DNA from: an uncultured Methanosarcinales archaeon
Lineage (GTDB): Archaea; Nanobdellota; Nanobdellia; Woesearchaeales; GW2011-AR9
Length of the DNA: 64,000 nt
Assembly (NCBI GenBank): GCA_964552945.1
Contig: CAZKIP010000005.1
Coordinates: 2,643-66,642 of the forward strand
Reading direction: 5' to 3'
The notes beneath the pieces are model-generated. The model was not told the origin of the DNA. It worked only from the letters and a program-made list of their open reading frames with translations, and searched no databases. The stretch's first letter is position 1. The number at the start of each line of letters is the position of its first letter. Below, piece after piece: positions 13,141 to 55,671 of this stretch. The position numbers were made by a program, and so were the translations under genes.

Positions 13141-13280
13141 GGGACTGTAGCTCAGACTGGGACGCAAGAATTGTAAAAAGCCAATTCTAGTGCAGTAAAG
13201 AGCGCCAGACTGAAGCAAAGTGATTTCGATTACTTTTTGCAGATATCTGGATGTCCAGGGTTCAAATCCCTGCAGTCCCA
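13141..13280 (+). tRNA. tRNA-Phe (GAA) with two introns (D-loop ~13163-13199, canonical 37/38 ~13216-13244)
   Basis: Acceptor GGGACTG/CAGTCCC, D-stem GCTC/GAGC, anticodon stem CCAGA/TCTGG with loop CTGAAG|A, T-arm CAGGG-TTCAAAT-CCCTG; mature length 74 nt after removing 37-nt and 29-nt inserts. Confidence 0.75.
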
Positions 13281-13353
13281 TATTTTCTTAAAAATTCAAC
13301 CTCACCATTAGAAGTTAACTTTATATACTTTAAATAATTCTTTAGAAGGGCAT

Positions 13354-16299: not shown

Positions 16300-16857
16300 T
16301 TAATTAATTCCAAATATTTTCAAGGCATTTGATAGTCGAGTTTTAGCTGAAACTTTTTCATGATGTCCAGCTAAATAGGGTGTTTTACTAGCATATTCCT
16401 GTAAATCCCAATTTGATAATCCCATTAAACCTGCAGCTTGACCAATTGAAAGGCCTCTTTGAAGAAGAACTGTTCCTTTTTTGATTCTTGCTGCTTGCAT
16501 TACATCTTGAAGATGTTCATTTATTTTTGCATTACATCCTTTGACAATTGAAAAAATGTTTCTTACATTTTGATTATAATTTCTAAATTTACTATTTGCA
16601 AGAGCATTTCTAGCTCCTTTTAATTTTTTCAAAATTTCTTGATAAGAATCTGGTTGTAAACAAGAAACTACTTTATAGATAGAATAAATCATAACAGTAA
16701 TAGAGATTAATTCTAAATCTTTGTATAACGCAACATCTTCAATGGCACGGTTACTTATTTTTTTCAATTCTTCTATGTCTTCTGATTCCCTTTTTTCTAG
16801 AGTCTTAATTACCAAATCAAAACTTTGAAGAATCTTCTTTCTAATAACCTCTTTCAT
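16300..16857 (-). CDS. Hypothetical protein with HTH-like segment
   Basis: 185-aa ORF; LSIGQAAGLMGLSNWDL helix-turn-helix-like stretch. Confidence 0.25.
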   Translation of the reverse strand: MKEVIRKKILQSFDLVIKTLEKRESEDIEELKKISNRAIEDVALYKDLELISITVMIYSIYKVVSCLQPDSYQEILKKLKGARNALANSKFRNYNQNVRNIFSIVKGCNAKINEHLQDVMQAARIKKGTVLLQRGLSIGQAAGLMGLSNWDLQEYASKTPYLAGHHEKVSAKTRLSNALKIFGIN

Positions 16858-16955
16858 TTTATTAAGTAAGAGGTTAGGTTTTATTAAAGTTTTGGATGTA
16901 CAAATTTGTTAAATAGTTAAATATTTAAATCAGTTCTCTTAAAGTAAAGTCAAAT

Positions 16956-17059
16956 GGGCCTGTGGTGTAATCCGGTAGCGCGTCCGGCTGGCAGCCGGGA
17001 TGTTTCGGGATATTATGAGGTAAACTCTAAATACGAAAATTCAAATCCCGACAGGTCCA
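16956..17059 (+). tRNA. tRNA-Ala (GGC) with ~30-nt intron in the T-arm
   Basis: Acceptor GGGCCTG/CAGGTCC with G3:U70, D-arm GTGT/GCGC, anticodon stem TCCGG/CCGGG with loop CTGGCAG, TCGGG + insert + TTCAAAT CCCGA; TATA (TTAAATATTTAAAT) ~30 nt upstream. Confidence 0.7.
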
Positions 17060-17094
17060 TACCATTTTATATAGTTTAAAATATTCTTAACGAC

Positions 17095-17586
17095 ATGGGT
17101 CTAGCTGTTACACATGTCATTATTACAATTGTTATTCTAGATTTATTTCGTCATTATGTTTTTGGTAAACAAAAGTTCCCACGTTACCTCCTAGTTATTG
17201 GAGGAATTGCTGGTTTATTTCCAGATATAGATATTCCAATTGGTTGGATGATGACTTTATTTACTGGAACCCAAATAACACTCCACAGAATTTTTACCCA
17301 TAGTTTCATTTTCCCTTTATTATTTTTAATCATAGCCATTGTTCTTCATTATAACAAAAATCATAAATGGGGAAGAATTGGTTATGTTATTGCAGCAGGA
17401 TGGACTTTACACATTATTTTTGATTGCATTTATGGGGGATATCTTCCTCTGGTATGGCCTTTTGATTTGATTACTTCATGTCCTTCTTGGGGTTTAATGA
17501 AATTCAGTGAGGGAATAGATGCAATTATTCTAGTTCTTTGGTTAGCTCATGAAGAAATTCATAACAAAATTAGAGATTATATTTAG
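17095..17586 (+). CDS. Membrane-bound metal-dependent hydrolase-like protein (DUF457-like)
   Basis: Small polytopic protein with conserved His residues (HVIITI, HRIFTHS). Confidence 0.4.
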   Translation: MGLAVTHVIITIVILDLFRHYVFGKQKFPRYLLVIGGIAGLFPDIDIPIGWMMTLFTGTQITLHRIFTHSFIFPLLFLIIAIVLHYNKNHKWGRIGYVIAAGWTLHIIFDCIYGGYLPLVWPFDLITSCPSWGLMKFSEGIDAIILVLWLAHEEIHNKIRDYI

Positions 17587-17599
17587 AATTTTTTAAAAA

Positions 17600-17713
17600 C
17601 GGGGCCGCCGCGATTTGAACACGGGTTCCACGACCCCCAGCCGTGGGTGATATCTCTCACGAGAAACTCTGAATAAAAAAGTTTCCTCGCTCCAAGCTAC
17701 ACTACGGCCCCAT
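17600..17713 (-). tRNA. tRNA-Pro (GGG) with ~38-nt intron in the D-arm region
   Basis: Minus-strand read: acceptor GGGGCCG/CGGCCCC, anticodon stem CACGG/TCGTG with loop CTGGGGG, T-arm CCGTG-TTCAAAT-CGCGG, oligo-T after the 3' end; a large insert with a GGAAAC/GTTTCT hairpin interrupts the D-arm. Confidence 0.6.
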
Positions 17714-17765
17714 CGAAGAAACTTTTTTAATCTGCTATAAATAATTTACTACTCAAAATTATTTG

Positions 17766-17830
17766 TAGAAACCCTCTTTTTCTTTTGTATTAGGGCCCCA
17801 CGAGCAATAAGAGGTGCCGGAGGGTTTCTA
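17766..17830. repeat. 11-bp perfect inverted repeat (TAGAAACCCTC ... GAGGGTTTCTA) enclosing a 43-nt GC-containing loop
   Basis: Read directly; lies between tRNA-Pro and the 3' end of the downstream membrane-protein gene. Confidence 0.5.
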
Positions 17831-17836
17831 AAAAGC

Positions 17837-18424
17837 CTACTCAAAATATTTCAACAATCTTTCTGGATGGTATTTAGTGAGAAGGAAATCTGCAAAAATT
17901 GATAACAATAACCAATAAAAAATGTGAAGAAGGTCTGTATGTCCTAAAATGTTAAGATAATTGTTTGAATAATCCCATAAAGTTAAATTAAAAACGGAAA
18001 CAGAAAGAAACCCTCCTAAAAACTCTAATGAACCTAAACAAAAAGTATAAAATGCTAATTTCTTCCACATGCTTGAAACGTTTAGATGAATTAAATAAAT
18101 AATTACCATTCCAAAACCATAGATGGGAAGAAAAGGAATAAAAATATTAAAGATTTCACTTAAAAAACTCACATAAATCAATCCTTGACCTGTAAAAGAT
18201 CTGTAAGCACTATCAATTATAAAACCAAACAGGCCGCCAACAAAAAACAATAAAACACCAGTCTCTAAAATCTTTTTCATAAGACTAGAATTTTTCATTG
18301 GTTTATTAATTCTTCCACTTGATACTACAACCCATACTTGGATTTTCCGATAAAGAAATAGAACCAGAAGATAAAAATCCCTCAATAGCAGAGTACAACT
18401 CATGTTTCCCTTTCTTCTCTCCAT
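17837..18424 (-). CDS. Membrane protein (likely true start at internal Met ~18298)
   Basis: 4-5 hydrophobic helices; N-terminal 42 aa of the ORF overlap the upstream redoxin gene. Confidence 0.4.
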   Translation of the reverse strand: MERRKGNMSCTLLLRDFYLLVLFLYRKIQVWVVVSSGRINKPMKNSSLMKKILETGVLLFFVGGLFGFIIDSAYRSFTGQGLIYVSFLSEIFNIFIPFLPIYGFGMVIIYLIHLNVSSMWKKLAFYTFCLGSLEFLGGFLSVSVFNLTLWDYSNNYLNILGHTDLLHIFYWLLLSIFADFLLTKYHPERLLKYFE

Positions 18425-23429: not shown

Positions 23430-23609
23430 TGGCCCCGCCGAGACTTTCAAAACCTGAAAGGCTTGTTTTGCTCAAGCTTTTCTTAAAAGGTTATTTGAAC
23501 TCGGGACCTCACGATTTCAGTCATAACGATGTTATGATATCAGTCGTGCGCTCTTTCCTGCTTCCAAGTCTTAATAAGCCTCGAAAGTACCAGGCTAAGC
23601 CACGGGGCC
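23430..23609 (-). tRNA. tRNA-Ile (GAU) with three introns (D-loop ~34 nt, canonical 37/38 ~22 nt, T-loop/T-stem ~50 nt)
   Basis: Minus-strand read: acceptor GGCCCCG/CGGGGCC + A, D-stem GCTT/GAGC around loop AGCCTGGTA, anticodon stem CACGA/TCGTG with loop CTGATA|A and a 7-bp intron hairpin TCATAAC/GTTATGA, variable AGGTC, T-arm CCGAG-TTCAAAT-[insert]-CTCGG; 180 nt = 74 + 106. Confidence 0.65.
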
Positions 23610-36234: not shown

Positions 36235-36507
36235 ATGGAGCAAAAAGAGGAGAAACTATCACGAGCGATTAGTGCCTATTCTAGAAGACAAATTCTTAGA
36301 CTTCTTGCAGATAAAGAATTAACCGTAAAAGAAATTGCTGCTAAGACCAATCTTTCTGTTTCCCTTGCCTCAAGACATCTAAAATTACTATATGATCTTG
36401 GTTTTCTAACTGTAAGAAAAGAATATCCTTTCAAATATTATTCTCTTAAGATAAAAGAAATGAAAAGCTTGCTTGAAATGTACGATAAGGTAATTAAAAA
36501 AATATGA
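36235..36507 (+). CDS. ArsR-family winged-helix transcriptional regulator
   Basis: RRQILRLLADKELTVKEIAAKTNLSVSLASRHLKLL HTH typical of ArsR/SmtB; stop overlaps the next start (ATGA). Confidence 0.6.
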   Translation: MEQKEEKLSRAISAYSRRQILRLLADKELTVKEIAAKTNLSVSLASRHLKLLYDLGFLTVRKEYPFKYYSLKIKEMKSLLEMYDKVIKKI

Positions 36508-39500
36508 AAAGAAAAATAAGAAGTAAAAAAGCGGAGAAATGCCTGCACAAGGAAAGAGTTATCCTAGTAATGTTACTCTCAGCAGTACTGCTATTCTTCT
36601 TAGCAAGTAGTCCAAACTTTGGAACTAAAACTATTGTCGATTCGGTAGATTATTTTAATCAAGTTAGCTTATTTGATGGGAGTTCTATAACAGGAGCAGC
36701 CGTTATTGGCATATCTAGTACCGACAATGACGATGATTTAGGAACTTTTGTTGATGATTTTGCTGATGGGATAAGTAATACTTCAAGATGGTTCAATCAT
36801 ACAACTAGAATGACCATACATCATGAAAATGAATTGATGAGATTTAATGCCTCATTAGCTTCAACTGAAGGAAACGCATCAATTATAACTATAGAGAATT
36901 TGTCTATGCATTCATTTAATATAACTGCAAATGTAACCTTACAAAATACATCAGATAGTCTTTCTACTGATGCATTGGCAACAATAGAATTAAGTTTATT
37001 TAACCAAACTAACCTTTCTCAAACCACAACATGTTCAGTAAATTTAGAAGAATCCTCAGGTGGAGCATATTATTTATATTTCGGAAACTCCACCACAAGT
37101 AATCCACCTCCAACAATTATTAATGCAGAAATGGCAAATATTGGAGATAATTTGACAGGACTCCTGAGAATGGAGTATATTAATGACACTGAAACAATCA
37201 ATTGTACTTTTACCACTGGATTTGATTCTTACTCTGTCAAAGGTGTTACTAAAGACATAGGACAAGATTTTGGAGCAGGCATTTTATCACAATTAACTAC
37301 TCAAGGAGGTGCCGCTTCAGGTGATGTGAATGCCACAATTGCGTCATTTAATTATAGTTTGGCTCCAGTTGCAAGTGCAAATAACGAACCTACCTCTACC
37401 ATCCTTCTAAACACAACAGATTTAACAGCAAACGATACCAATCAAAACTTAACAGCTTATTCAGAGACAAGTGATTTAGACAATGATGATGTATTTGTTG
37501 TTTACAATTGGTTATTAAATGGTTCATCTGTGATGGTCCTAAACATGCCTTTCTTGCCAAATGACAATAATGAAAGTGCTTCTACCCACAACTATGCTCT
37601 TGGTGATAATGGAAATAATACAGGAGGGGCATCATGGAACTCCACAGGAGGTTTTGATTTCAATGGCAGCTATGAATTTGATAGTATCGATGATTATCTT
37701 TCTTTAGAAAATTCCGGCCAATATGAACCTACCATGAATTTTAGCATAGAAGCATGGGTTTATGTAAAAGGCAGTGGAAACAACGGAGGACAAAATGGAA
37801 TCGTTAATAAAGACGGAGGGTTCAACGATGGTTTTAATTTTGCGATTGGTGATTCTTCTGCCCCAACAGTAAATTTTGGAACTGGAGATTCTGGAGCCAG
37901 TGACATTGAAACAATCACAGAATTAAATCTCAACGAATGGACCCATGTTGTTGCTTCATATAATGGAAGTAATACTTCAATTTACATCAATGGCGCGTTA
38001 GACTTTGTTGGTACAAGAACTGGTGCTTTAGCCTATAGTACAGGCGATTTAGAAATAGGAAGAAATAGGGATACACCACCCGGACAGGAAGGATATTTCA
38101 ATGGTTCCATTGACAACGTTAGAATTTGGAATATAACTTTAACCCCTGAACAAATTTCTGCTCTTTACAAAAATAGAACAGACCTAATCGTTTCACAAGA
38201 ATTAAGTGTAGGAGATAATTGGACAGTAGATGTAACTCCAAACGATGGAGTTCTTGATGGAGCAATTAATAGATCTAACGATTTGTTGGTGTTAGATGTT
38301 ACTGCACCAGCAGCCAACAATGACCCTACCTCTACCATCCTTCTAAACACAACAGATTTAACTAAAAATGATACCAATCAAAACTTAACAGCTTATGTAG
38401 ACACAAGTGATTTAGATGCTGATACAGTAAACGTTGTTTACAACTGGTTATTAAATGGTTCATCTGTGATGGTCCTAAATATGCCTTTCCTACCAAATGA
38501 TGGAAATGAAACTGCTTCTACCCACAACTATGCTCTTGGAGATAATGGAAATGTTACTGGTGCTACATGGAATTCTACAGGTGGTTTTGATTTCAATGGC
38601 AGTTATGAATTTGATAGTGTTGATGATTACATTTCTATAAGAGATAGAAGTGAGTTTGAATTAACCTCAAATATAACAATAGAAGCGTGGTTCTATTTGA
38701 AAGGCAATGGGAGCACAGGGATTAGTGGTCTTTTAAATAAAGATGGTGGGTTTGGCAATGGATTTGATATTGAATTAGGAACTGATGATCTTTTGAATGT
38801 AGCTTTCAACACCGGAGATTTTGGATCAACAACTTTAGAAACTGCTGCAAACGCAATTTCTCTTAACAGATGGACCCATTTGGTAATAATGTATAATGGA
38901 AGCAATACTTCTATTTATATTGATGGCGCTTTAAATGTAGTTGGTACGAAAACTGGCGCATTAACTTACAGCACTGGAGATTTAGAGATAGGTAGGGCAA
39001 TTAACTCCAGTGGACAAGAGGGTTATTTCAATGGTTCCATAGATAACGTTAGAATTTGGAATAGAACTTTAACCCCTGAACAAATTTCTGCACTCTACAA
39101 AAACAGGACAGATTTAATAGTTTCTCAAGAATTGAATGTAGGAGATAATTGGACAGTAGATGTAACTCCAAACGATGGAGTTCTTGATGGAGCAATTAAT
39201 AGATCTAACGATTTGTTGGTGTTAGACATAGTTGCAGCTGCTCCTAGTTGTGGAACTCTTACTTCTAATACTACTTTAACAGAGGACATTAATTCTACTG
39301 AAACATGTTTCACTATTGGTGCTCATGGAATTACTTTAGATTGTGATAATTATTTAATCAACTATTCCACAGAAGGTAGCGGAAATGGAATAGATAATAC
39401 AGGATATCACAACGTAACAATTAAAGATTGTAGGATTGAACAATACGGAAATACAGGAGAAGCAATTCTATGGGATGACGCTAGAAGTGGTAAATTAATT

Positions 39501-42425
39501 AACAACACCATTATAACTTACACTGCAACATCGCCAGCAATTTTTATACCTCCAAATTCCAATAATACTTATATCACAAAAAACAACCTAACTACAAAAG
39601 ATAACTCTTATGCCCTAGATGTTGTTGGAAGAGACAACAACATTACAAATAATACCTTTTTATCAACTAATTCAGCTGGGATAAGAGTTGTTTATGCTCA
39701 AGGGGTGAAGAATTTATTCAAAAACAATTTCATCCAAGGATATCCTTTTGGTTCCATTGGAATTGATGTAAACAACCTCAATAATACTTTTTTAAACAAT
39801 ACAATAATCATGAATAGTTCTTCATCATGGGGAGTTCGTATTACAGATGGTAACTACACTCATCTTGAAAACAATACAATAAATGTAACAGGAGCAACAA
39901 GCTATGGGATATATCTTTCTGATAGTTCTGAAAGAAACTCTTTAATTAACAATCTTCTAGAAACTAATTCCTCAGATTCATTTTCAATTTTCGATGAAAC
40001 TGATGACAATAAAATAAATTATATGAGTTACATTAACGCATCAAGCAAAATTGAATGGGTGGATAATGGATCAAGAAGTTTCTTAAGAAATTTAACTTTT
40101 AATGGGACCATTGGTCCAAATACAAACATTTATTTAGGAAATGGAACCGTAGCTGTCGATACATCGGCATTTGACAATGGAAAAATTAATTCTACTGTCA
40201 ACATTACTTTTTATGGATTAGATTTAGAATTTGCAGATGCAGTTATCAAAATCCATAGTTTTAGCACAGATGGTGTAACCATAGATAGTTCAGGTTCAGA
40301 TTGTGTAGGAGATTCTTGTGAGATTATTAGTTACACTGGAGGGACTTTAAGATTCAATAGTACATCATTGGGAAGTTTATTTGCAAACAACTCAGAGGAT
40401 TTAACTCCACCAAATGTAACCATCCTAACTCCAATAAACACAAGTAATTTTTCAAAAACATCTAGTAATCAAACATTTAACGTAAGTATTAATGAGGCTA
40501 ATATTTATGGGGTATTATTCATTTTTGATAATGGTTCTGGAGTAGATTTCAACATTACAGCAAATAACAATTCGGGATATTGGGCTGCACCATACAACGT
40601 TTCCACTTTGGCAGAAGGAACACAAACAGTTAGAGTGTCTGCAAATGATACGGCAGGAAACATAAATAGTACACAACAGGTTACAATTACAACAGATTAT
40701 ACAGCCCCAAATGTAACTATCATCTCACCAACTAACAGAAGCAATTACTCCTTTACTTCAAGCAATCAAACGTTCAACACATCAGTATTTGATGCAAACA
40801 TCAAAACAGTCTGGTTCTCATTTGATAATGGAACGGGAACAGATTTTAACATTACAGCAAATAATAACTCTGGGTATTGGGCTGCACCATACAATGTATC
40901 AACACTAGCAGAAGGAACACAAACAATAACGATTATAGCAAACGATTCAGCAGGAAATGTAAACACAACACAAAGCATTACAATAACAACTGATTACACT
41001 GTACCTGTAGTTAACATCACATTCCCAACTAACGGAACCAATTTCAGCATTGGATCTTATAATCAAACTTTCAATGTAAGTATCCAAGAAAGAGACATAG
41101 GAACTGTCTTATTTAATTTTGATAATTCATCCGGAACAGGATTCAACCTTACTCCAACAAATCAATCAGGATATTGGGTAGCTAGTTACAATGTTTCAAA
41201 GCTAGCAAATGGAACACACCTATTAACAATTTTAGTTAACGACACTGTAAACAATAAAAATAATACGCAAACAATAAATTTCACTTTTGATAATAGAACA
41301 ATGCCTGTCGCTCCTGCCCCTGCAGGTGCAGGAAATACAGGAAGTAGTGGAGGAGGAGGTTCAAGTTCCTCCTCTGATTCAGGAGGGGGAGGGTCCCTTC
41401 CAATAAAAGAACCCGCTCCTAAATCGGTTGCCCCTGAAGATTTTGAAAAATCAGAAAAAGATGTTGTAGAAGAAAAAGTAGAAAAAGAAGATTCAAGTGA
41501 ACAAGTAGATTCAAAAGGAGTAGCCGCAACTACTATAAAAGCCCTTAAATCTGCCAAGTCTACTTTTAGCGCAACTGGGAAAGCATTTTTCTCTGGAGAA
41601 TTTTTATTAGATATGTCTGGGGTTTGGATTCTATTAATCTCCCTAATGTTACTTTCTGTATTGTTATTATTTGTTACCTTTAGACACAAGAAGCGCTTTA
41701 TCCCTTATTATGTTTCAGATTATCCCTCTCCAGAATTACAAGTTGAAAGAACCAGCCATTTACGCCAATTAAGATCACAAGTAAGAAATGCGGGTGCTGG
41801 AGTTAAGAGAGAAATTAGTTCTTTATTAGCTAAAGGAAGAATTCATCAAACTTCTTTGAAATGGCTACAGAATTGGGTCGAAACGATGCAAGGCAAAGGA
41901 GATTCGGAAGCTAAAATAAAGAGCTTATTACAACATAATCCTAATGTGACCCCTCAGATGATTAAAGTGGTTTTAGATAGAATAAAAGCTAAAAAGTTAT
42001 TGCAGAAGAAATATTCTCTATCCTTAAAAGAATTAGAGAAAATTGAAAAAGTGGTACTTAAGTTAGTTAAAAAAGGAAAAACCATCTCTGAGATAAAATC
42101 TATCTTCTCTGAAAATGGGTGGGATTCTTCAATCCTAGGTCCTTTTATTGAAGCATATTCCAAACTAGTACGTAAAAGAAAATTTGTTGCTTATGGTGCA
42201 CTTCAAATTTCACAAAAATTAGCAAGAAAAATGGTCAAAAAAACTCACAATTTATCTTCCATCGAGATAAAACAATTAGAATCTTTCATTGACGATTGTT
42301 ATAATAGAAACATTCCTATGGGGGAAGTAGTTGATGGTTTGGTTGAAAGTGGATGGACTTACAAGGAGATTGATTCATTGGTTAGAATACGTTATCGGAT
42401 GGGCCTTTATAATGTTGTCCTATGA
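36504..42425 (+). CDS. Giant (1973 aa) cell-surface protein: signal/TM, two LamG-like domains, right-handed beta-helix region, three Ig-like repeats, G/S/P linker, TM anchor and ~270-aa cytoplasmic tail; extremely rich in N-x-S/T sequons
   Basis: LamG signatures (W.HV...YNG.N.SIYING...GYFNGSIDNVRIWN) twice; NNTI/NNLT beta-helix repeats; three ~95-aa repeats (P.NVTI..P.N.SN.S....NQTFN ... SGYWAAPYNVSTLAEGTQT); C-terminal TM VWILLISLMLLSVLLLFVTF. Confidence 0.7.
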   Translation: MKRKIRSKKAEKCLHKERVILVMLLSAVLLFFLASSPNFGTKTIVDSVDYFNQVSLFDGSSITGAAVIGISSTDNDDDLGTFVDDFADGISNTSRWFNHTTRMTIHHENELMRFNASLASTEGNASIITIENLSMHSFNITANVTLQNTSDSLSTDALATIELSLFNQTNLSQTTTCSVNLEESSGGAYYLYFGNSTTSNPPPTIINAEMANIGDNLTGLLRMEYINDTETINCTFTTGFDSYSVKGVTKDIGQDFGAGILSQLTTQGGAASGDVNATIASFNYSLAPVASANNEPTSTILLNTTDLTANDTNQNLTAYSETSDLDNDDVFVVYNWLLNGSSVMVLNMPFLPNDNNESASTHNYALGDNGNNTGGASWNSTGGFDFNGSYEFDSIDDYLSLENSGQYEPTMNFSIEAWVYVKGSGNNGGQNGIVNKDGGFNDGFNFAIGDSSAPTVNFGTGDSGASDIETITELNLNEWTHVVASYNGSNTSIYINGALDFVGTRTGALAYSTGDLEIGRNRDTPPGQEGYFNGSIDNVRIWNITLTPEQISALYKNRTDLIVSQELSVGDNWTVDVTPNDGVLDGAINRSNDLLVLDVTAPAANNDPTSTILLNTTDLTKNDTNQNLTAYVDTSDLDADTVNVVYNWLLNGSSVMVLNMPFLPNDGNETASTHNYALGDNGNVTGATWNSTGGFDFNGSYEFDSVDDYISIRDRSEFELTSNITIEAWFYLKGNGSTGISGLLNKDGGFGNGFDIELGTDDLLNVAFNTGDFGSTTLETAANAISLNRWTHLVIMYNGSNTSIYIDGALNVVGTKTGALTYSTGDLEIGRAINSSGQEGYFNGSIDNVRIWNRTLTPEQISALYKNRTDLIVSQELNVGDNWTVDVTPNDGVLDGAINRSNDLLVLDIVAAAPSCGTLTSNTTLTEDINSTETCFTIGAHGITLDCDNYLINYSTEGSGNGIDNTGYHNVTIKDCRIEQYGNTGEAILWDDARSGKLINNTIITYTATSPAIFIPPNSNNTYITKNNLTTKDNSYALDVVGRDNNITNNTFLSTNSAGIRVVYAQGVKNLFKNNFIQGYPFGSIGIDVNNLNNTFLNNTIIMNSSSSWGVRITDGNYTHLENNTINVTGATSYGIYLSDSSERNSLINNLLETNSSDSFSIFDETDDNKINYMSYINASSKIEWVDNGSRSFLRNLTFNGTIGPNTNIYLGNGTVAVDTSAFDNGKINSTVNITFYGLDLEFADAVIKIHSFSTDGVTIDSSGSDCVGDSCEIISYTGGTLRFNSTSLGSLFANNSEDLTPPNVTILTPINTSNFSKTSSNQTFNVSINEANIYGVLFIFDNGSGVDFNITANNNSGYWAAPYNVSTLAEGTQTVRVSANDTAGNINSTQQVTITTDYTAPNVTIISPTNRSNYSFTSSNQTFNTSVFDANIKTVWFSFDNGTGTDFNITANNNSGYWAAPYNVSTLAEGTQTITIIANDSAGNVNTTQSITITTDYTVPVVNITFPTNGTNFSIGSYNQTFNVSIQERDIGTVLFNFDNSSGTGFNLTPTNQSGYWVASYNVSKLANGTHLLTILVNDTVNNKNNTQTINFTFDNRTMPVAPAPAGAGNTGSSGGGGSSSSSDSGGGGSLPIKEPAPKSVAPEDFEKSEKDVVEEKVEKEDSSEQVDSKGVAATTIKALKSAKSTFSATGKAFFSGEFLLDMSGVWILLISLMLLSVLLLFVTFRHKKRFIPYYVSDYPSPELQVERTSHLRQLRSQVRNAGAGVKREISSLLAKGRIHQTSLKWLQNWVETMQGKGDSEAKIKSLLQHNPNVTPQMIKVVLDRIKAKKLLQKKYSLSLKELEKIEKVVLKLVKKGKTISEIKSIFSENGWDSSILGPFIEAYSKLVRKRKFVAYGALQISQKLARKMVKKTHNLSSIEIKQLESFIDDCYNRNIPMGEVVDGLVESGWTYKEIDSLVRIRYRMGLYNVVL
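37385..39236 (+). repeat. Near-identical ~930-bp tandem duplication inside the giant surface-protein gene (copy 1 ~37385-38315, copy 2 ~38323-39236)
   Basis: Long stretches identical between copies (e.g. 38190-38300 vs 39128-39236); also shown by identical antisense ORF peptides at 38165-38377 and 39125-39313. Confidence 0.75.
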
Positions 42426-42570: not shown

Positions 42571-45033
42571 ATGACCCATTCAGAAATACAAAAAAGCTCA
42601 GATCATGACAAAATTGTTCCTCGTGTTATTGAGGAGGAAATGAAGACAGCTTACATTAATTATGCCATGTCAGTTATTGTAGGTAGGGCCCTTCCAGATG
42701 TCAGAGACGGCTTAAAACCAGTGCATAGGAGGATCCTATATGCTATGTTTGAAATTGGTTTAACTCACAATAAGTCTTTTAAAAAATGTGCTAGAATTGT
42801 AGGTCAAGTTTTAGGTGCATATCATCCTCATGGTGATGCTTCAGTTTACGATGCTTTGGTGAGAATGGCACAAGATTTCTCGCTCCGTTATCCATTAATT
42901 AGGGGACAGGGTAATTTTGGTTCCATTGATGGTGATTCTGCAGCTGCATATCGTTATACAGAAGCTAAGTTAAACAAGTTTGCTGAGGAACTTCTCAAAG
43001 ATATTGATAAAAAAACAGTTATTTTTAAAGACAATTTTGACGGTTCTCTACAAGAACCTTCGGTTCTTCCATCTAAGATTCCTAACCTTTTGGTAAATGG
43101 TTCTTCTGGTATCGCCGTAGGAATGGCTACCAACATCCCCCCTCACAATTTAACTGAAGTTTGTGAAGGAGTTATTTCATTAATTGATAATCCTGAAATT
43201 ACTGTTGAAGAATTAATTAAAATTATTCCTGGTCCCGATTTTCCTACTGGGGGGACTATTAATTGTGGGAGTGCTCTTTATCATGCTTATGCTCACGGGA
43301 AAGGTAAAGTAACAATAAAAGCGGTATCCGATGTTACGGATAGTAAAATAATTATTAGCGAGATTCCTTATCAAGTTAACAAGGAAGAGATGATTAAACA
43401 AATTGCTAATTTAGTTAGAGACAAAGTTATTACAGGAATTCGTAATATTAACGATGAATCTGATAAAGATGGGATTAGGGTTGTAATTGATCTTAAACAA
43501 GGTACAGATGGTCAAGTCATTTTAAATCAACTTTACAAACATAGTCGTTTAAAAATTTCTTTTGGGATGAATATGCTGGCTTTAGTAGATTCTCGGCCTC
43601 GAGTTCTTGGATTGAAAGATATTTTGCATTATCACATTCTCCATAGAAAAGAAGTAATTACCAATAAAACAAAATATGAGTTGGAACAAGCTCAGAAGAG
43701 GGTCCACATTTTAGATGGATTACTTGTTGCGCTTAACAATATTGATGAAATTATTCCAGGTATAAAGAGAAGTAGGACAGTAGATGAAGCAGAACTATTT
43801 CTAATGGAAGGATACTCTCTTTCTAAGATTCAAGCCAAAGCCGTTTTAGAGATGCGATTACAGAAATTGGCTTCTTTGGAGCAAGATAAAATTAGGGATG
43901 AACACAAAAGTTTATTGGAAAAAATTGAAGAATTTTTAGCAATTTTATCTTCTGAAGAAAAAGTTCTAAACATTATCAAGCAAGAAATGGAAGAAATGAA
44001 AAACAATTATGGAGATGAAAGGCGTTCACAAATTGTTATTGGGGATGATGACGGCGGATTTGACATTGAAGAATTGATTGAAGAAGGAACCGCTGTTGTA
44101 ACTCTTACCAATGCAGGATATGCAAAAAGACTGTCTATTGATACCTATAAAGTTCAACATAGAGGGGGAAGGGGGGTAAAAGCTGCTGGAACAAAAGATG
44201 AAGATTTTGTAGAAAGATTATATGTTACTTCAACTCACGATTATCTTCTTTGTTTTACCGATAAAGGACAAGTTTACTGGCTTAAAGTTTATTTAATACC
44301 TGAAGGAAGTCGTCAATCTAAAGGGAAACATATCGCAAATTTACTTGAACTTAAAGAAGGAGAAAAAATAAATGCCATAATCCCCGTCCGTGATTTTAAA
44401 GAAGGCTATCTATTCATGGCAACTAAGAAAGGAACGGTTAAGAAAACTGAACTAACTTGTTTCTCAAAACCTCGAAAAGGAGGAATTAGGGCCATTGCTC
44501 TAGATGATGACGACTCTTTAATTGGTGTTAAACATACTTCTGGAGAGAAAGAGATTATATTAGCTACCAAAGAAGGTCAAGCAAATCGTTTTAATGAACA
44601 AAATGTCCGTCCAATGGGTAGAACAGCAAGAGGAGTTCGAGGAATTCGTCTTAAGGGAGAAGAAGATTATGTTATTGGTATGATTATTGCAGAAGAAGGT
44701 AAAAATATTCTTACTTTGACAGAGAAAGGTTATGGTAAAAGAACTCCAATTAGTGATTATCGGTTATGTAATAGAGGAGGGAAAGGAGTTACAAACATTA
44801 AGGTTACAGAAAAGAATGGTCCAGTTCAATCTATCAAAGTAACAAGTGGCGATGAAGAATTAATGCTTGTATCTAAGCAAGGTATTGGAATAAGGATAAG
44901 ATGTGATTCTATCTCAACTATTGGAAGGGCTACTCAAGGAGTTAGAGTGATGAGATTGGGCGAAGGAGATCAACTTGCTGCCGCAGCAAAAATTGTTATT
45001 GAAGATGAAAATGTGGAAGAAACTGAAGAATGA
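42571..45033 (+). CDS. gyrA: DNA gyrase subunit A
   Basis: N-terminal [28 protein letters not shown], active-site Tyr region, GyrA-box [12 protein letters not shown] and C-terminal beta-pinwheel repeats; 820 aa. Confidence 0.85.
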
Positions 45034-46127
45034 AATTTTATGCTTTATCAATTCCCGGATTGGAAAAACTTTCTCAAAATGAAATCAAAGATTTGTTATT
45101 CGTTTCTGCAGAGATAGATTCTTTGGCTCTGAGATTTTCTTTGGAGGGTAAAAAAGAAATAAGTGACTTCATTTCTCATTCTCAATCTATTAGAAGAATT
45201 GTTTTAGAAATATCTGAATGTTCTAATTTGGATAGCTTATCCTTTGATAAGATAGAATTTCCTTGGAAGGAATTCTTTTCAGATTCATTAAGTTTTAAAG
45301 TTGGCGTAGAAGGTGTTAAGGGACAGGACAATCGTCTTGTAATTGCTAAGAAAGTTGTTGGAGAATTAATTTCTGTTTTAGAAAAGAATGATATAAAACC
45401 CGAAATTGAGTTGAAAAAACCAGATTTTTTAGTTAATGTTTTCTTCACTAACAATACTTATTTGATTGGTATTGATTTAGCTGGAGATGAACTTAATTCT
45501 CGCGAATACCGCGTGTTCCCTCACTCAGCTTCTTTTAAAGGAGATCTTGCTTATTATTTTGTTCGAAGGTCAGGTTTTGTTTCTGGAAATAAACTTTTGA
45601 GTGGATTTTGTAAAGATGGAGTTCTATCTATTGAGGCAGCTTTTTTTTCAGAAAAAAAAGAATGGAATTCTCTCTCTAAATTATCTCTGTCTAAATTTTC
45701 TTTTTTTAAAGATACGCTCAATAATTCTTTTGATAATGATAAGGACAATCAAGATTCAACTCAAGAACCAAAAATAATGGCCTTTGATGAAAGTTCCCAA
45801 AACATAATTGCTGCCAGAAAGAACGCAAAATTGGGAAAAGTGAGTAATAAAATTAATTTTCACAAATATTCCCTGGAAGAATTAGATTTAAAATTTGAAA
45901 AGGAAATGTTTGATAACCTTATTTTTCAAATAACTACCAAAGATGAGAGTAAGATTAATGAGATTTATTATCAAGCCAGTTACATTCTAAAAAAAGGTGG
46001 AAAAATGTTAATTATAGGAAGAAAAAACTGGGAATTATCAATTTCAGATAAATTTAATTTAATCTCTAAAGAGGATTTCATCCATGGTCAGAGTACAATT
46101 ACCTCTTGGTTGTTGGAAAAGAAGTAA
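45030..46127 (+). CDS. THUMP-domain RNA methyltransferase (Trm14/RlmL-like, putative tRNA m2G methyltransferase)
   Basis: N-terminal THUMP-like region, R.Y..H.A.L..DLAYYF motif and degenerate SAM-binding region; start overlaps gyrA stop (ATGA). Confidence 0.45.
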
Positions 46128-52347: not shown

Positions 52348-53463
52348 TCATCGATTACTTAGAAATTTATCTACTTCCTTTTTAGCCTTAACCAACTTCT
52401 TTCGATGTTCTTTCAAAAATTTGTTTGTTTTTTCAATCAAAATTTGTTTAAGTTCTCCCGATAATAATTTTCCTGAGCTATAATCATCATAAATCTTTTT
52501 TAGCTTCTTATCATCTGGTTCCATTCCATACAATAACATTTGATAAGCCACGTCTATCTCAGGAACTCCACCTTTTTTACGATGTTCTTCTAATGTTGCT
52601 CTTCCACCGGAGAAGGCATATTTTTTTATTTTTCTGGCAGCTTCTTCTGGAGAATCGTTAAGCGCAATGAAAGACATTGGGTCTGAAGAAGACATTTTTC
52701 CTCCTTTCAATCCGGGCATAAATTTATGATATGTAGAACTCAACGTTTTGAATTTATTTAATTTAATTCTTTTTGAAAGGTCTCTGGCCAACCTTAAATG
52801 GGGGTCTTGGTCTGCTCCAACTGGGACTATGACCGGGAGTGGTTTACCTTCAAATTCTGGGAGTTGTGGATGTAACATATCGGCTGCTTGTAGTAAGGCG
52901 GAGGACATTTTTCCTGGTGAAATGTTTCCATAAATTGCTTTAAATTCATTGTAGGTTACATGTCTAGCTAACATTTGTGAAAGAGAATAGTAAGCATTTG
53001 CTTTATTTCCATCCTTAGCTCTAGCTGATTGAAAATAGAAATCACATTTTTTCAAATCTAATCCTAAAGCAACATAATTTGTTAAATATTCTTCTATGGC
53101 GGTTTTATGAAGTTCTTTCAAATTGGTATTTCTAGAATTGTATGCTTCAATGTCTGCTACAGTTAAATATATTTTTGCTCCTAATTTTTGATAGAATATA
53201 ATTTGATCGGCAACCATTTTGTGACCAAAATGAAACCTTCCTGAAGGCATTAGGCCAGTCATCATTACAAAAGGTTTCTTATTTTGGACTGCTTCCACAA
53301 TTTGTTTGAAATCTCTATGGGCAAAAATCATCTCTCTTCTAAACAGAACTTGCTCTTGAAATACGGCAGGAAGATTTCTTAAAGGATTAAGACCAAAATC
53401 TTTCATTAACTTATCATAATCGATTTTACCAGAAACTTCCCAAGGAGTAACTTTAGCTTTCAT
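52348..53463 (-). CDS. trpS: Tryptophanyl-tRNA synthetase (archaeal/eukaryotic type)
   Basis: N-terminal VTPWEVSGKIDYDKLMKDFG, HIGH-type motif PSGRFHFGH, KMSSS motif; 371 aa. Confidence 0.8.
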   Translation of the reverse strand: MKAKVTPWEVSGKIDYDKLMKDFGLNPLRNLPAVFQEQVLFRREMIFAHRDFKQIVEAVQNKKPFVMMTGLMPSGRFHFGHKMVADQIIFYQKLGAKIYLTVADIEAYNSRNTNLKELHKTAIEEYLTNYVALGLDLKKCDFYFQSARAKDGNKANAYYSLSQMLARHVTYNEFKAIYGNISPGKMSSALLQAADMLHPQLPEFEGKPLPVIVPVGADQDPHLRLARDLSKRIKLNKFKTLSSTYHKFMPGLKGGKMSSSDPMSFIALNDSPEEAARKIKKYAFSGGRATLEEHRKKGGVPEIDVAYQMLLYGMEPDDKKLKKIYDDYSSGKLLSGELKQILIEKTNKFLKEHRKKLVKAKKEVDKFLSNR

Positions 53464-54246: not shown

Positions 54247-55332
54247 TTATATATCTATAACAACTTTCTTTTCTTTTAAGTTAACACTCTTAATTTTCTT
54301 TTCCTTTTTGAGAGCTTTTCCAACATCGACCCACTCCTCAGTTTTACGAAGTTCTTTAACAATATCTAGCAATTTTTGTAAGGGTTGATACTTCTCATAA
54401 ATCAAATCAGCTTTTTTTGTATTTGATTCAATTAGACCTTCTTGTTTTTTTATAGAATCTTTTTGCTCCTTGATCGTTTTCTCAAGACCTTTTATTTTCT
54501 TATCATAAGGAGAAATGGTCTGAAAGGGGTTTATTGTGTTAATTGCTTTGTTGTAAGTATCAACCTCTTTTATGATTTTTTTATCAAGTAAAGTTAAAGG
54601 AGTGATTTCTTCCTCATAAATAAACCCCGAAGGTTTCTTAATAATTTTTTTAATTTTCTCAATTTCTTTAACGATTAACTCACTCTCTTTATCATCAATT
54701 TCTTTTGGTAAACTATTTTTATCGATATTTATTCTTAAACAAATCTCCTCAGCATACAATCCTCCTAAACCAATTTCTGTAGCTAGAGATGTAGCTAGAT
54801 TTTTTTTCTCACTTTTTTTAAGAATTTTTTTAAGTTCACTTTCAGAGATTTCTTTCCAATTAATTCCTGCTTCAGGAAAGAGATATTTCTCTTTTGGTTT
54901 GATAACTCTATCTTTCCACCTTTGCCATTCCAATGTAGCAATAATTTCCATGTTTTCTTTAGTAAAAACAATGTTGCCTTTTGAGAAAAGTTCAATTATC
55001 AGAAAATATTTCTCTTTTTTTTCTAATTCTAAGATGAGTACTCTATCTGAAAATCTTTGAGTGATACTTTTTATGAATGCATTGTTAAGGTATTTTCTCA
55101 ATTGCATACAGAAACCAGTTGGTCTTATTGGAGGATTTTTTTCTTCGGTTAAACAAACAAATTTTCCTGGAATAATTTTTAGCAAAACTTTCCCTTTTCC
55201 TACAGCATGTAGCTGTAAGAGTAATTCTTTTTTTTCTTGATGATAAATTTGAGAAATCTTTCCTTTGGTTAGGAATTGTAGTTCATTAACTATTGCAGCC
55301 AGTTCTAAAGAGGAGATTGATTTCTTTTTCAT
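54247..55332 (-). CDS. NFACT-N domain protein (RqcH/Tae2/NEMF-like), short form; start moved to internal Met to clear tRNA-Cys
   Basis: N-terminal SSLELAAIVNELQFLTKGKISQIYHQ resembles the NFACT-N start; coiled-coil central part; ORF-track start 55398 would overlap tRNA-Cys. Confidence 0.45.
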   Translation of the reverse strand: MKKKSISSLELAAIVNELQFLTKGKISQIYHQEKKELLLQLHAVGKGKVLLKIIPGKFVCLTEEKNPPIRPTGFCMQLRKYLNNAFIKSITQRFSDRVLILELEKKEKYFLIIELFSKGNIVFTKENMEIIATLEWQRWKDRVIKPKEKYLFPEAGINWKEISESELKKILKKSEKKNLATSLATEIGLGGLYAEEICLRINIDKNSLPKEIDDKESELIVKEIEKIKKIIKKPSGFIYEEEITPLTLLDKKIIKEVDTYNKAINTINPFQTISPYDKKIKGLEKTIKEQKDSIKKQEGLIESNTKKADLIYEKYQPLQKLLDIVKELRKTEEWVDVGKALKKEKKIKSVNLKEKKVVIDI

Positions 55333-55377
55333 ATTGTTAGAATAGTTGCTTGTTTTAAATAGTTTTTTAGAAAAATG

Positions 55378-55488
55378 AGGGCCTGGAGGGAATTTCACTA
55401 GACGTTCGTTCCATCACTTGCGTCATAGACTTGAACCCCCGATCTGTCCCTCTGCAGGGGACCGCTTTAGCCGCTTAGCCACAGACCC
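55378..55488 (-). tRNA. tRNA-Cys (GCA) with ~38-nt intron between T-loop and T-stem 3' strand
   Basis: Acceptor GGGTCTG/CAGGCCC + U73, anticodon stem GTCCC/GGGAC with loop CTGCAGA, T-stem GGGGG...CCCTC with TTCAAGT loop then insert; TATA (ACTATATAAAT) upstream and oligo-T downstream. Confidence 0.7.
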
Positions 55489-55536: not shown

Positions 55537-55671
55537 TGGGCCTGATGGGAAAGTCGAAGCATCGCTCCTTTCTGCGAAACTTATTCGAACCCACGGTATC
55601 CAGCTCTCATCAATTGGTTTTTACAACCAACATAGAAGGCTGGCGCCCTATCCAGACTAGGCTACAGGCCC
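55537..55671 (-). tRNA. tRNA-Arg (UCU) with two introns (canonical 37/38 ~27 nt with TTGGTT/AACCAA hairpin; T-loop/T-stem ~33 nt)
   Basis: Acceptor GGGCCTG/CAGGCCC, D-arm GCCT/GGGC, anticodon stem CCAGC/GCTGG with loop CTTCTA|A, T-arm GTGGG-TTCGAAT-[insert]-CCCAT. Confidence 0.65.

Follow-up and report, generated by a model that had tools for sequence, protein, structure and literature searches.

Are tRNA genes that carry inserts outside the anticodon loop still functional genes, and if so, what are the inserts? This question is raised by a 64,000-nucleotide (nt) stretch of DNA (termed the window) from contig CAZKIP010000005.1 of assembly GCA_964552945.1, in which a tRNA-Ala(GGC) gene and a tRNA-Pro(GGG) gene flank a membrane protein gene and each tRNA gene contains one insert. 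The findings given below make it very probable that both are functional archaeal tRNA genes, each with one short protein-spliced intron of the bulge-helix-bulge (BHB) type at a non-canonical site. An earlier reading made from the letters alone (the sequence-only reading) placed this gene group at positions 16956–17713 of the window. Both tRNA genes are found there, but the tRNA-Pro gene ends at 17711 and the end had been set 2 nt too far. As was also proposed, neither insert is at the 37/38 site; the positions are 53/54 in tRNA-Ala and 20/21 in tRNA-Pro.

The region 16700–18000 displays two GC-rich islands (63%–65% GC) in a genome of about 33% GC. The gene between the two tRNA genes, at 17095–17586 (+), encodes a YdjM-family membrane protein (Pfam PF04307, E = 2.3e-16). 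It had been described as a membrane hydrolase, and its homologues are in fact named Woesearchaeota/Nanoarchaeota metal-dependent hydrolase. The YdjM gene is used here as a syntenic marker and has no part in the intron mechanism.

The tRNA-Ala(GGC) gene is at positions 16956–17059 (+), which includes the discriminator A73, and was delimited by Rfam and by ARAGORN on the spliced form; CCA is not encoded. Rfam model RF00005 matches the gene with 36.1 bits (gathering score 29) and an insertion of about 35 nt in the T-loop region, and this is the sole Rfam match above gathering score across the whole window. As read, exon 1 (tRNA positions 1–53; 16956–17009, +) is GGGCCTG TG GTGT AATCCGGTA GCGC G TCCGG CTGGCAG CCGGG ATGTT TCGGG, the insert (17010–17039, +) is ATATTATGAGGTAAACTCTAAATACGAAAA, and exon 2 (tRNA positions 54–73; 17040–17059, +) is TTCAAAT CCCGA CAGGTCC A. 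The insert is located exactly between G53 and U54, i.e. between the T-stem 5′ strand TCGGG and the loop TTCAAAT, where the sequence-only reading had seen an insert of about 30 nt; its length is exactly 30 nt. Removal of 17010–17039 in silico, which also defines exon 2, yields a 74-nt sequence that ARAGORN draws as tRNA-Ala(ggc) with a regular cloverleaf. In this drawing the acceptor stem GGGCCTG/CAGGTCC holds the G3:U70 pair that had been noted before.

The tRNA-Pro(GGG) gene, with a G73 discriminator, is at positions 17600–17711 (−), as determined by direct reading and by ARAGORN on the spliced form. Exon 1 (tRNA positions 1–20, including 17a; 17691–17711, −) reads GGGGCCG TA GTGT AGCTTGGA. 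The insert reads GCGAGGAAACTTTTTTATTCAGAGTTTCTCGTGAGAG; it starts with GCGAGGAAAC and ends with GTTTCTCGTGAGAG. Exon 2 (17600–17653, −), delimited by in-silico splicing, reads ATA TCAC C CACGG CTGGGGG TCGTG GAAC CCGTG TTCAAAT CGCGG CGGCCCC G. The acceptor stem is intact, as are the anticodon arm (CACGG CTGGGGG TCGTG) and the T-arm (CCGTG TTCAAAT CGCGG), the two arms for which this had been stated earlier. An insert of about 38 nt in the D-arm had also been proposed. An insert is present in that arm, but it is in the D-loop and not in the D-stem; it follows GCTTGGA, i.e. nucleotide 20 (20/21 in the usual nomenclature). Its length by the BHB rule given below is 37 nt (17654–17690, −), and by alignment to an intronless orthologue 38 nt. 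With 17654–17690 removed, a 75-nt sequence is obtained that ARAGORN draws as tRNA-Pro(ggg), again with a regular cloverleaf and with G37. The discriminator varies among related loci (designated by L numbers): it is G73 in the window (17600) and in L002 (2001), and A73 in L009, L011, L017, L034 and L043.

Both genes have possible expression signals. An AT-rich, TATA-like stretch is found about 25–33 nt upstream of tRNA-Ala and an oligo-T tract downstream; for tRNA-Pro there is a TTTATA-like box about 26–31 nt upstream and TTTTT downstream. These signals would be compatible with expression, but this is weak evidence in an AT-rich genome.

Archaeal introns spliced by proteins are defined by the BHB motif. 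In this geometry the last six nucleotides of exon 1 comprise four helix nucleotides, whose partners are intron positions −6 to −3, and two bulge nucleotides. Marck and Grosjean (2003) is reportedly an example of the literature on BHB motifs and the splicing endonuclease (EndA) that is behind this geometry. The criterion used here, two 3-nt bulges around a 4-base-pair (bp) helix with a cut after the second bulge nucleotide, was applied to every possible junction pair of each gene. In both genes the junction that restores the tRNA is the one that shows a full 4-bp central helix (H) beside an intron-internal helix (h′). In tRNA-Ala, H consists of TTCG (17004–17007) paired with CGAA (17034–17037), and the bulges are GG/A (17008–17010) and AA/T (17038–17040), the stroke marking the junction. 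The inner helix h′ is formed by TATT..GAG (17011–17019) with CTC..AATA (17025–17033) and has a 2x2 mismatch; its core TATT/AATA has 4 bp and is extendable to nine positions, seven of them paired. In tRNA-Pro, H consists of CTTG (17693–17696) paired with TGAG (17656–17659), the bulges are GA/G (17690–17692) and AG/A (17653–17655), and h′ is formed by CGAGGAAAC (17681–17689) with GTTTCTCG (17660–17667), with seven contiguous bp and 7–8 bp in all. This h′ is the GGAAAC/GTTTC hairpin that the sequence-only reading had recognized within the insert.

A null model was used in which the junctions were fixed by homology and the intron was shuffled, with a 4/4 central helix plus the observed adjacent helix as target. 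The fraction of shuffled introns matching the observed motif is 3.8e-4 for tRNA-Ala and 7e-5 for tRNA-Pro. When the T-arm region of tRNA-Ala is folded locally, the minimum free energy (MFE) structure gives H, the 5′ bulge and h′. The full-length tRNA-Pro precursor has an MFE of −49.4 kcal/mol (z = −4.0), with the acceptor, D, anticodon and T stems and the intron hairpin formed. Whether exact boundaries could be drawn that restore a normal D-arm and T-arm had been set as a test beforehand; such boundaries are found, as the ARAGORN cloverleaves and the BHB-folding junctions show. A covariance-model check had been named as well, and here the Rfam tRNA model accommodates tRNA-Ala with its insertion and the BHB scan draws the junctions of both genes.

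Several observations weigh against an assignment as BHB introns. The outer helix h next to the 3′ bulge has 0–1 bp in both genes, while the strict hBHBh′ form asks for at least 2 bp. Since this helix is weak in both, the motif is of the relaxed HBh′ kind, a class that has been described (PMC5829648, PMC4033280). The MFE fold of full-length tRNA-Ala forms the T-stem and not H; H is built from T-stem nucleotides, thus H and the T-stem are mutually exclusive. In addition, the outermost H pair of the Ala intron in L002 is a U-U mismatch. In tRNA-Pro the 3′ junction is ambiguous by 1 nt, with a D-loop of 11 nt by the BHB rule compared to 10 nt in the intronless L017, and the plain MFE fold is in a register shifted by 2 nt within a repeated GAGAG. 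The strict Pro register is picked by comparative data alone; it is used because the orthologues in L002, L043, L009 and L034 permit one register only, the orthologue junctions CGAG-AA, CGAG-CA and TGAG-TT each being compatible with a single register.

The tRNA-Ala – YdjM – tRNA-Pro arrangement recurs among relatives. Both tRNA genes are uninterrupted in L017, as is tRNA-Ala in L005, and in alignments to these intronless orthologues the window inserts appear as clean gaps, between G53 and U54 and after GCTTGGA. The closest relative is L002, with a YdjM protein 79% identical. Its Ala exons are identical to those of the window at 74/74 positions and its Pro exons differ at one base; Pro exon 1 is identical also in L009, L011 and L034. 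The introns differ. L002 has a 31-nt Ala intron at the same site with several positions different, and a 50-nt Pro D-loop intron at the same site, together with a second Pro intron at 59/60.

A Pro D-loop intron after GCTTGGA is present in five orthologues (L002, L009, L011, L034, L043). The intron strand of H in these is always YGAG, and h′ is wholly different in each. In an alignment of the Pro junction segments, with intron interiors left out, 47/48 cells are paired (98%), compared with 27%–57% in slid controls; all four h′ pairs (4/4) show double compensatory changes, and none of 500 shuffles reaches the observed values. For tRNA-Ala, a pattern scan of metagenomes returned seven loci, among them L074 and L075/77/78, which have homologous 53/54 introns, as does L002. 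Across five sequences 92% of the cells are paired versus 32%–48% when slid, and three pairs show double changes. Both covariation samples are small (5–6 sequences). Three metagenome loci (L072, L073, L076) were set aside, as they are GC-rich and not tRNA-like by inspection.

Four further interrupted tRNA genes were found in the window by a gapped acceptor plus T-stem search combined with inspection of GC islands. tRNA-Phe(GAA), at 13141–13280 (+), has a D-loop intron at 13162–13198 (H, ACTG/CAGT) and an anticodon-loop insert at about 13216–13244 with a relaxed motif. tRNA-Ile(GAT), at 23430–23609 (−), has three inserts: in the D-loop (23555–23588; H, CCTG/CAGG, with an h′ of 8 bp), in the anticodon loop (23516–23537, without a strict BHB), and at 59/60 (23444–23493; H, TTCA/TGAA). 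tRNA-Cys(GCA), with U73, is at 55378–55488 (−) and carries a 59/60 intron at 55392–55429 with the same H sequence, TTCA/TGAA. tRNA-Arg(TCT), at 55537–55671 (−), carries an anticodon-loop insert at about 55607–55633 and a T-loop insert at about 55552–55582, both relaxed. All four fold as tRNAs once spliced in silico, and neither ARAGORN nor Rfam at gathering score reports any of them.

Thus the window has six tRNA genes, all (6/6) interrupted, and 10 inserts altogether. The strict core rule is obeyed by six of the ten, i.e. the three D-loop inserts, Ala 53/54, Ile 59/60 and Cys 59/60. The three D-loop introns display one architecture: the D-stem, unpaired A14 and a purine at 15, H from positions 16–18, and the bulge at 19–20. 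For the remaining four inserts, in the anticodon loops of Phe, Ile and Arg and in the T-loop of Arg, a strict 4-bp central helix was not found, and the boundaries are uncertain by 1–2 nt. In tRNA-Ile the anticodon-loop flanks CUGAUA and CUGAAA form a 6x6 internal loop with possible tandem G-A pairs. tRNA-Arg could instead fold an intact anticodon arm from CCAGC/GTTGG. The 3′ end of tRNA-Cys (55378–55398) is also covered by a neighboring open reading frame (ORF; 54247–55398, NFACT-N domain protein) as listed from a GTG start; the true start codon is probably further downstream.

Degraded pseudogenes had been named beforehand as the alternative. By this account the Ala and Pro genes are in decay after random insertions into the T-arm and D-loop, with functional genes for Ala(GGC) and Pro(GGG) elsewhere in the genome. 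The failure or low scores of ARAGORN and Rfam on the raw genes would fit this, as would the G73 and the U13-U22 mismatch of tRNA-Pro, and paralogues are possible outside the visible 64 kb. A 13:22 mismatch is however present in the intronless L017 too, and all stems of both tRNAs are intact after splicing. It is the inserts that have diverged between the window and L002, not the exons, next to a protein with 79% identity, and the BHB motifs of the inserts show compensatory changes. In addition, 27/34 tRNA candidates in the related loci are interrupted; together with the six in the window this is a genome-wide pattern and not local decay. With the syntenic intronless versions in L017 and L005, the comparative results speak for excluding pseudogene decay and support selection on the splicing motif. 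This explanation is rated as very unlikely.

A second alternative is that the inserts are kept in the mature RNA as expansion segments or have another role, e.g. as protein-binding hairpins or embedded guide RNAs. In its favor, the intron hairpins are stable, some inserts in the window (e.g. in the Ile anticodon loop) are without a strict BHB, and excision of the Ala and Pro introns is deduced rather than observed. The conserved tertiary interaction between D-loop and T-loop is, on the other hand, established tRNA structure, and 30 nt at G53/U54 or 37 nt in the D-loop would break it. Across relatives the BHB geometry is conserved and the insert sequence is not. C/D-box guide RNAs were considered and rejected, as the motifs are not seen on direct reading of the Ala and Pro introns, and Rfam gives no meaningful match to a non-tRNA family in the region. 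Retention of the inserts is accordingly considered extremely unlikely.

Self-splicing group I/II introns, or scars and attachment-site remnants of integrated mobile elements, are a negligible alternative: tRNA genes are common integration targets, bacterial tRNA genes carry group I introns (PMC13011429), and an intron sequence common to different tRNA genes (see below) does imply mobility of some kind, but inserts of 30–50 nt are far below the group I/II core size, Rfam gives no intron match at gathering score or at E ≤ 5–10, the host is archaeal, direct repeats flanking the inserts are absent, and the junctions fit the EndA BHB rule instead. For group I introns (RF00028) in particular, the core is more than about 200 nt and the usual site is the anticodon loop, whereas the Ala and Pro inserts are 30 and 37 nt and outside that loop. 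A split or permuted gene was also rejected, as the exons are contiguous and colinear within 104 nt (Ala) and 112 nt (Pro).

With the inserts taken as BHB introns, processing can be proposed as follows. The primary transcript would fold locally and place each exon-intron junction in a 3-nt bulge flanking the 4-bp helix. In tRNA-Ala, exon nucleotides 48–51 (UUCG) would pair with the intron CGAA; in tRNA-Pro, D-loop nucleotides 16–18 (CUUG) would pair with the intron UGAG. The intron-internal hairpin h′ would close the inner side. EndA would then cut behind the second nucleotide of each bulge and an RtcB-type ligase would join the exons, after which the T-arm (Ala) or D-loop (Pro) could fold normally; for the 53/54 intron, the T-arm would form only after excision. 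Relaxed HBh′ motifs would need an EndA of broad specificity, as is reported for DPANN archaea, and such an enzyme is therefore predicted for this lineage. Kaneta et al. (2018; PMC5829648) link α4 EndAs with an L3 loop in DPANN to a higher level of tRNA gene disruption. One finding does not favor the proposal: Pfam scans that covered about 50 ORFs of the window, each of 120 amino acids or more, did not find an EndA or RtcB domain. The enzymes would thus be encoded elsewhere, if at all.

The related loci show how the intron sets vary. Orthologous Ala and Pro genes beside the same protein gene have from 0 to 3 introns per gene in sister genomes. The intron site in orthologous Ala(GGC) genes is 53/54 in some lineages and 59/60 in others, and the L011 Pro introns are in the D-loop, at 37/38 and at 53/54. 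One intron is common to different tRNAs. Over 49 nt, the window Ile 59/60 intron (23444–23493, −) and the 59/60 intron of the L002 tRNA-Pro(GGG) (2014–2062, −) share 88% identity (E = 1e-8), while the window tRNA-Pro has no 59/60 intron. This similarity suggests a recent transfer of an intron between different tRNA genes. It mirrors the intron transposition inferred for Thermoproteales (Fujishima et al. 2010, as cited in PMC4090602 and PMC4033280).

The balance tips slightly towards a second “Thermoproteales-like” burst of tRNA introns in a marine Woesearchaeota/Nanoarchaeota lineage, a burst that would be independent of the first and still active. If so, these loci would show BHB introns as they are gained, lost and moved between genes, the kind of snapshot called for in the field, and this in organisms expected to have an endonuclease of the simple α4 type.

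Other features of the related loci may be mentioned. Orthologous Ala and Pro genes with different intron sets are found in L011 (about 229–365, +; 2012–2142, −) and L043 (952–1132 and 1264–1444, +; 2928–3041, −). Examples of intron sets are D-loop plus 59/60 in tRNA-Ala, and D-loop plus 37/38 plus 53/54 in tRNA-Pro. Some 59/60 introns are about 75–100 nt long. In L022, about 50 nt downstream of each of two tRNA-Ala genes (469–606 and 645–933), the T-stem 3′ strand and acceptor 3′ strand occur a second time (CCCGACGGGTCC, CCCGGCAGGTCC). These could be duplicated 3′ ends, e.g. alternative 3′ exons or remnants of integration sites.

The host is archaeal and belongs with the DPANN superphylum. The window encodes Hel308 domain 4, Hef (helicase plus ERCC4), Topo VI subunits A and B, and NOG1. 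Save for some generic mislabels, the YdjM homologues and the 66 related genome loci carry the label Woesearchaeota, Nanoarchaeota or Nanoarchaeia. The host is an AT-rich marine archaeon of the Woesearchaeota/Nanoarchaeota type, DPANN-like. Other genes in the window include those for a THUMP-domain methyltransferase (45030–46127, +), probably tRNA-modifying, a class Ib (Trp/Tyr) aminoacyl-tRNA synthetase (52348–53463, −) and a DNA gyrase A subunit (42571–45033, +). A 1973-amino-acid ORF (36504–42425, +) has an internal GC-rich island at 41293–41443.

Detection of these tRNA genes by standard programs is poor. ARAGORN, which sees introns at the canonical position only, was applied, also in intron mode, to the raw window and to 71 loci and misses nearly all interrupted tRNA genes. 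On the raw window it gives only a mis-folded 69-nt Pro at 17601–17669, and the raw tRNA-Pro gene is not detected by Rfam. The search that replaced it used an acceptor stem and T-stem with gaps allowed, plus a strict BHB scan. At permissive E-values Rfam returned tRNA only (Ala and a sub-threshold Cys) and noise. The matches to StyR-143, mir-1282 and a fragment of transfer-messenger RNA (tmRNA) were dismissed as chance, and the tmRNA-fragment match, at 13141–13283, pointed to the tRNA-Phe gene. One mis-folded gene by ARAGORN and one gene by Rfam compare with the six that exist in the window. A severe underestimate is therefore likely for the tRNA complements of Woesearchaeota/Nanoarchaeota metagenome-assembled genomes, and for inferences on completeness or codon usage that are based on them. 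Hidden disrupted tRNA genes in DPANN had been suspected by Kaneta et al. (2018; PMC5829648).

How does this compare with known systems? In Crenarchaeota and Nanoarchaeota, BHB introns at sites 20/21, 53/54 and 59/60 and genes with up to three introns are textbook knowledge (PMC4090602). The disruption of tRNA genes in DPANN has been pointed out before, and curation by hand was expressly asked for (PMC5829648). Non-canonical sites and raised tRNA disruption in DPANN are thus already published, and current understanding is not overturned. The orthologous tRNA-Ala – YdjM – tRNA-Pro series and the intron shared by Ile and Pro were not found in the literature searched.

The red alga Cyanidioschyzon merolae and the cryptophyte nucleomorphs resemble the window in having D-, anticodon- and T-arm introns in one gene that are BHB-dependent (PMC3728597, PMC4090602). 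These are however eukaryotic genes, nuclear or nucleomorph, with a heterotetrameric Sen complex, and are phylogenetically unrelated to the window host. A second likeness is to members of the same superphylum with increased tRNA disruption: Nanoarchaeum equitans, ARMAN-2/Micrarchaeum (with an ε2 EndA) and the surveyed Woese- and Pacearchaeota (Kaneta et al. 2018, PMC5829648; Fujishima et al. 2011, PMC3239211). Their tRNA sets are incomplete by standard predictors, which the authors attributed to hidden disrupted genes (PMC5829648). The survey of Kaneta et al. included a single Woesearchaeota genome and used tRNAscan-SE (PMC5829648). Unlike the known DPANN disrupted genes, those in the window include no split or permuted tRNA genes.

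A third likeness is to the Thermoproteales (Crenarchaeota). These share with the window short introns at 20/21, 53/54 and 59/60 besides 37/38, up to three introns per gene, relaxed HBh′ motifs, and similar introns in different tRNA species, which implies transposition; such non-canonical and multiple introns are credited to Sugahara et al. (2008) and Fujishima et al. (2010), as cited in PMC4090602, PMC4033280 and PMC8450103. Thermoproteales average 0.84 introns per gene, and Pyrobaculum calidifontis has 71 in 46 genes (PMC8450103). The density in the window, 10 inserts in six genes, is comparable to this published extreme, though in a small sample. The differences are that the window host is a mesophilic, marine DPANN archaeon of 33% GC and not a hyperthermophilic crenarchaeon, that its expected endonuclease would be α4 with an L3 loop (PMC5829648) as opposed to the (αβ)2 enzyme with the crenarchaeal loop of Thermoproteales, and that its intron sequences are unrelated to theirs. 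What is added to the known systems is of modest interest: a mesophilic marine DPANN lineage has a very high intron load, ARAGORN and Rfam fail on its tRNA genes, and orthologous genes form a presence/absence series with an intron common to different tRNAs. The Ala/Pro series flanking YdjM, together with the intron shared by Ile and Pro, forms a compact natural dataset on the gain, loss and movement of BHB introns.

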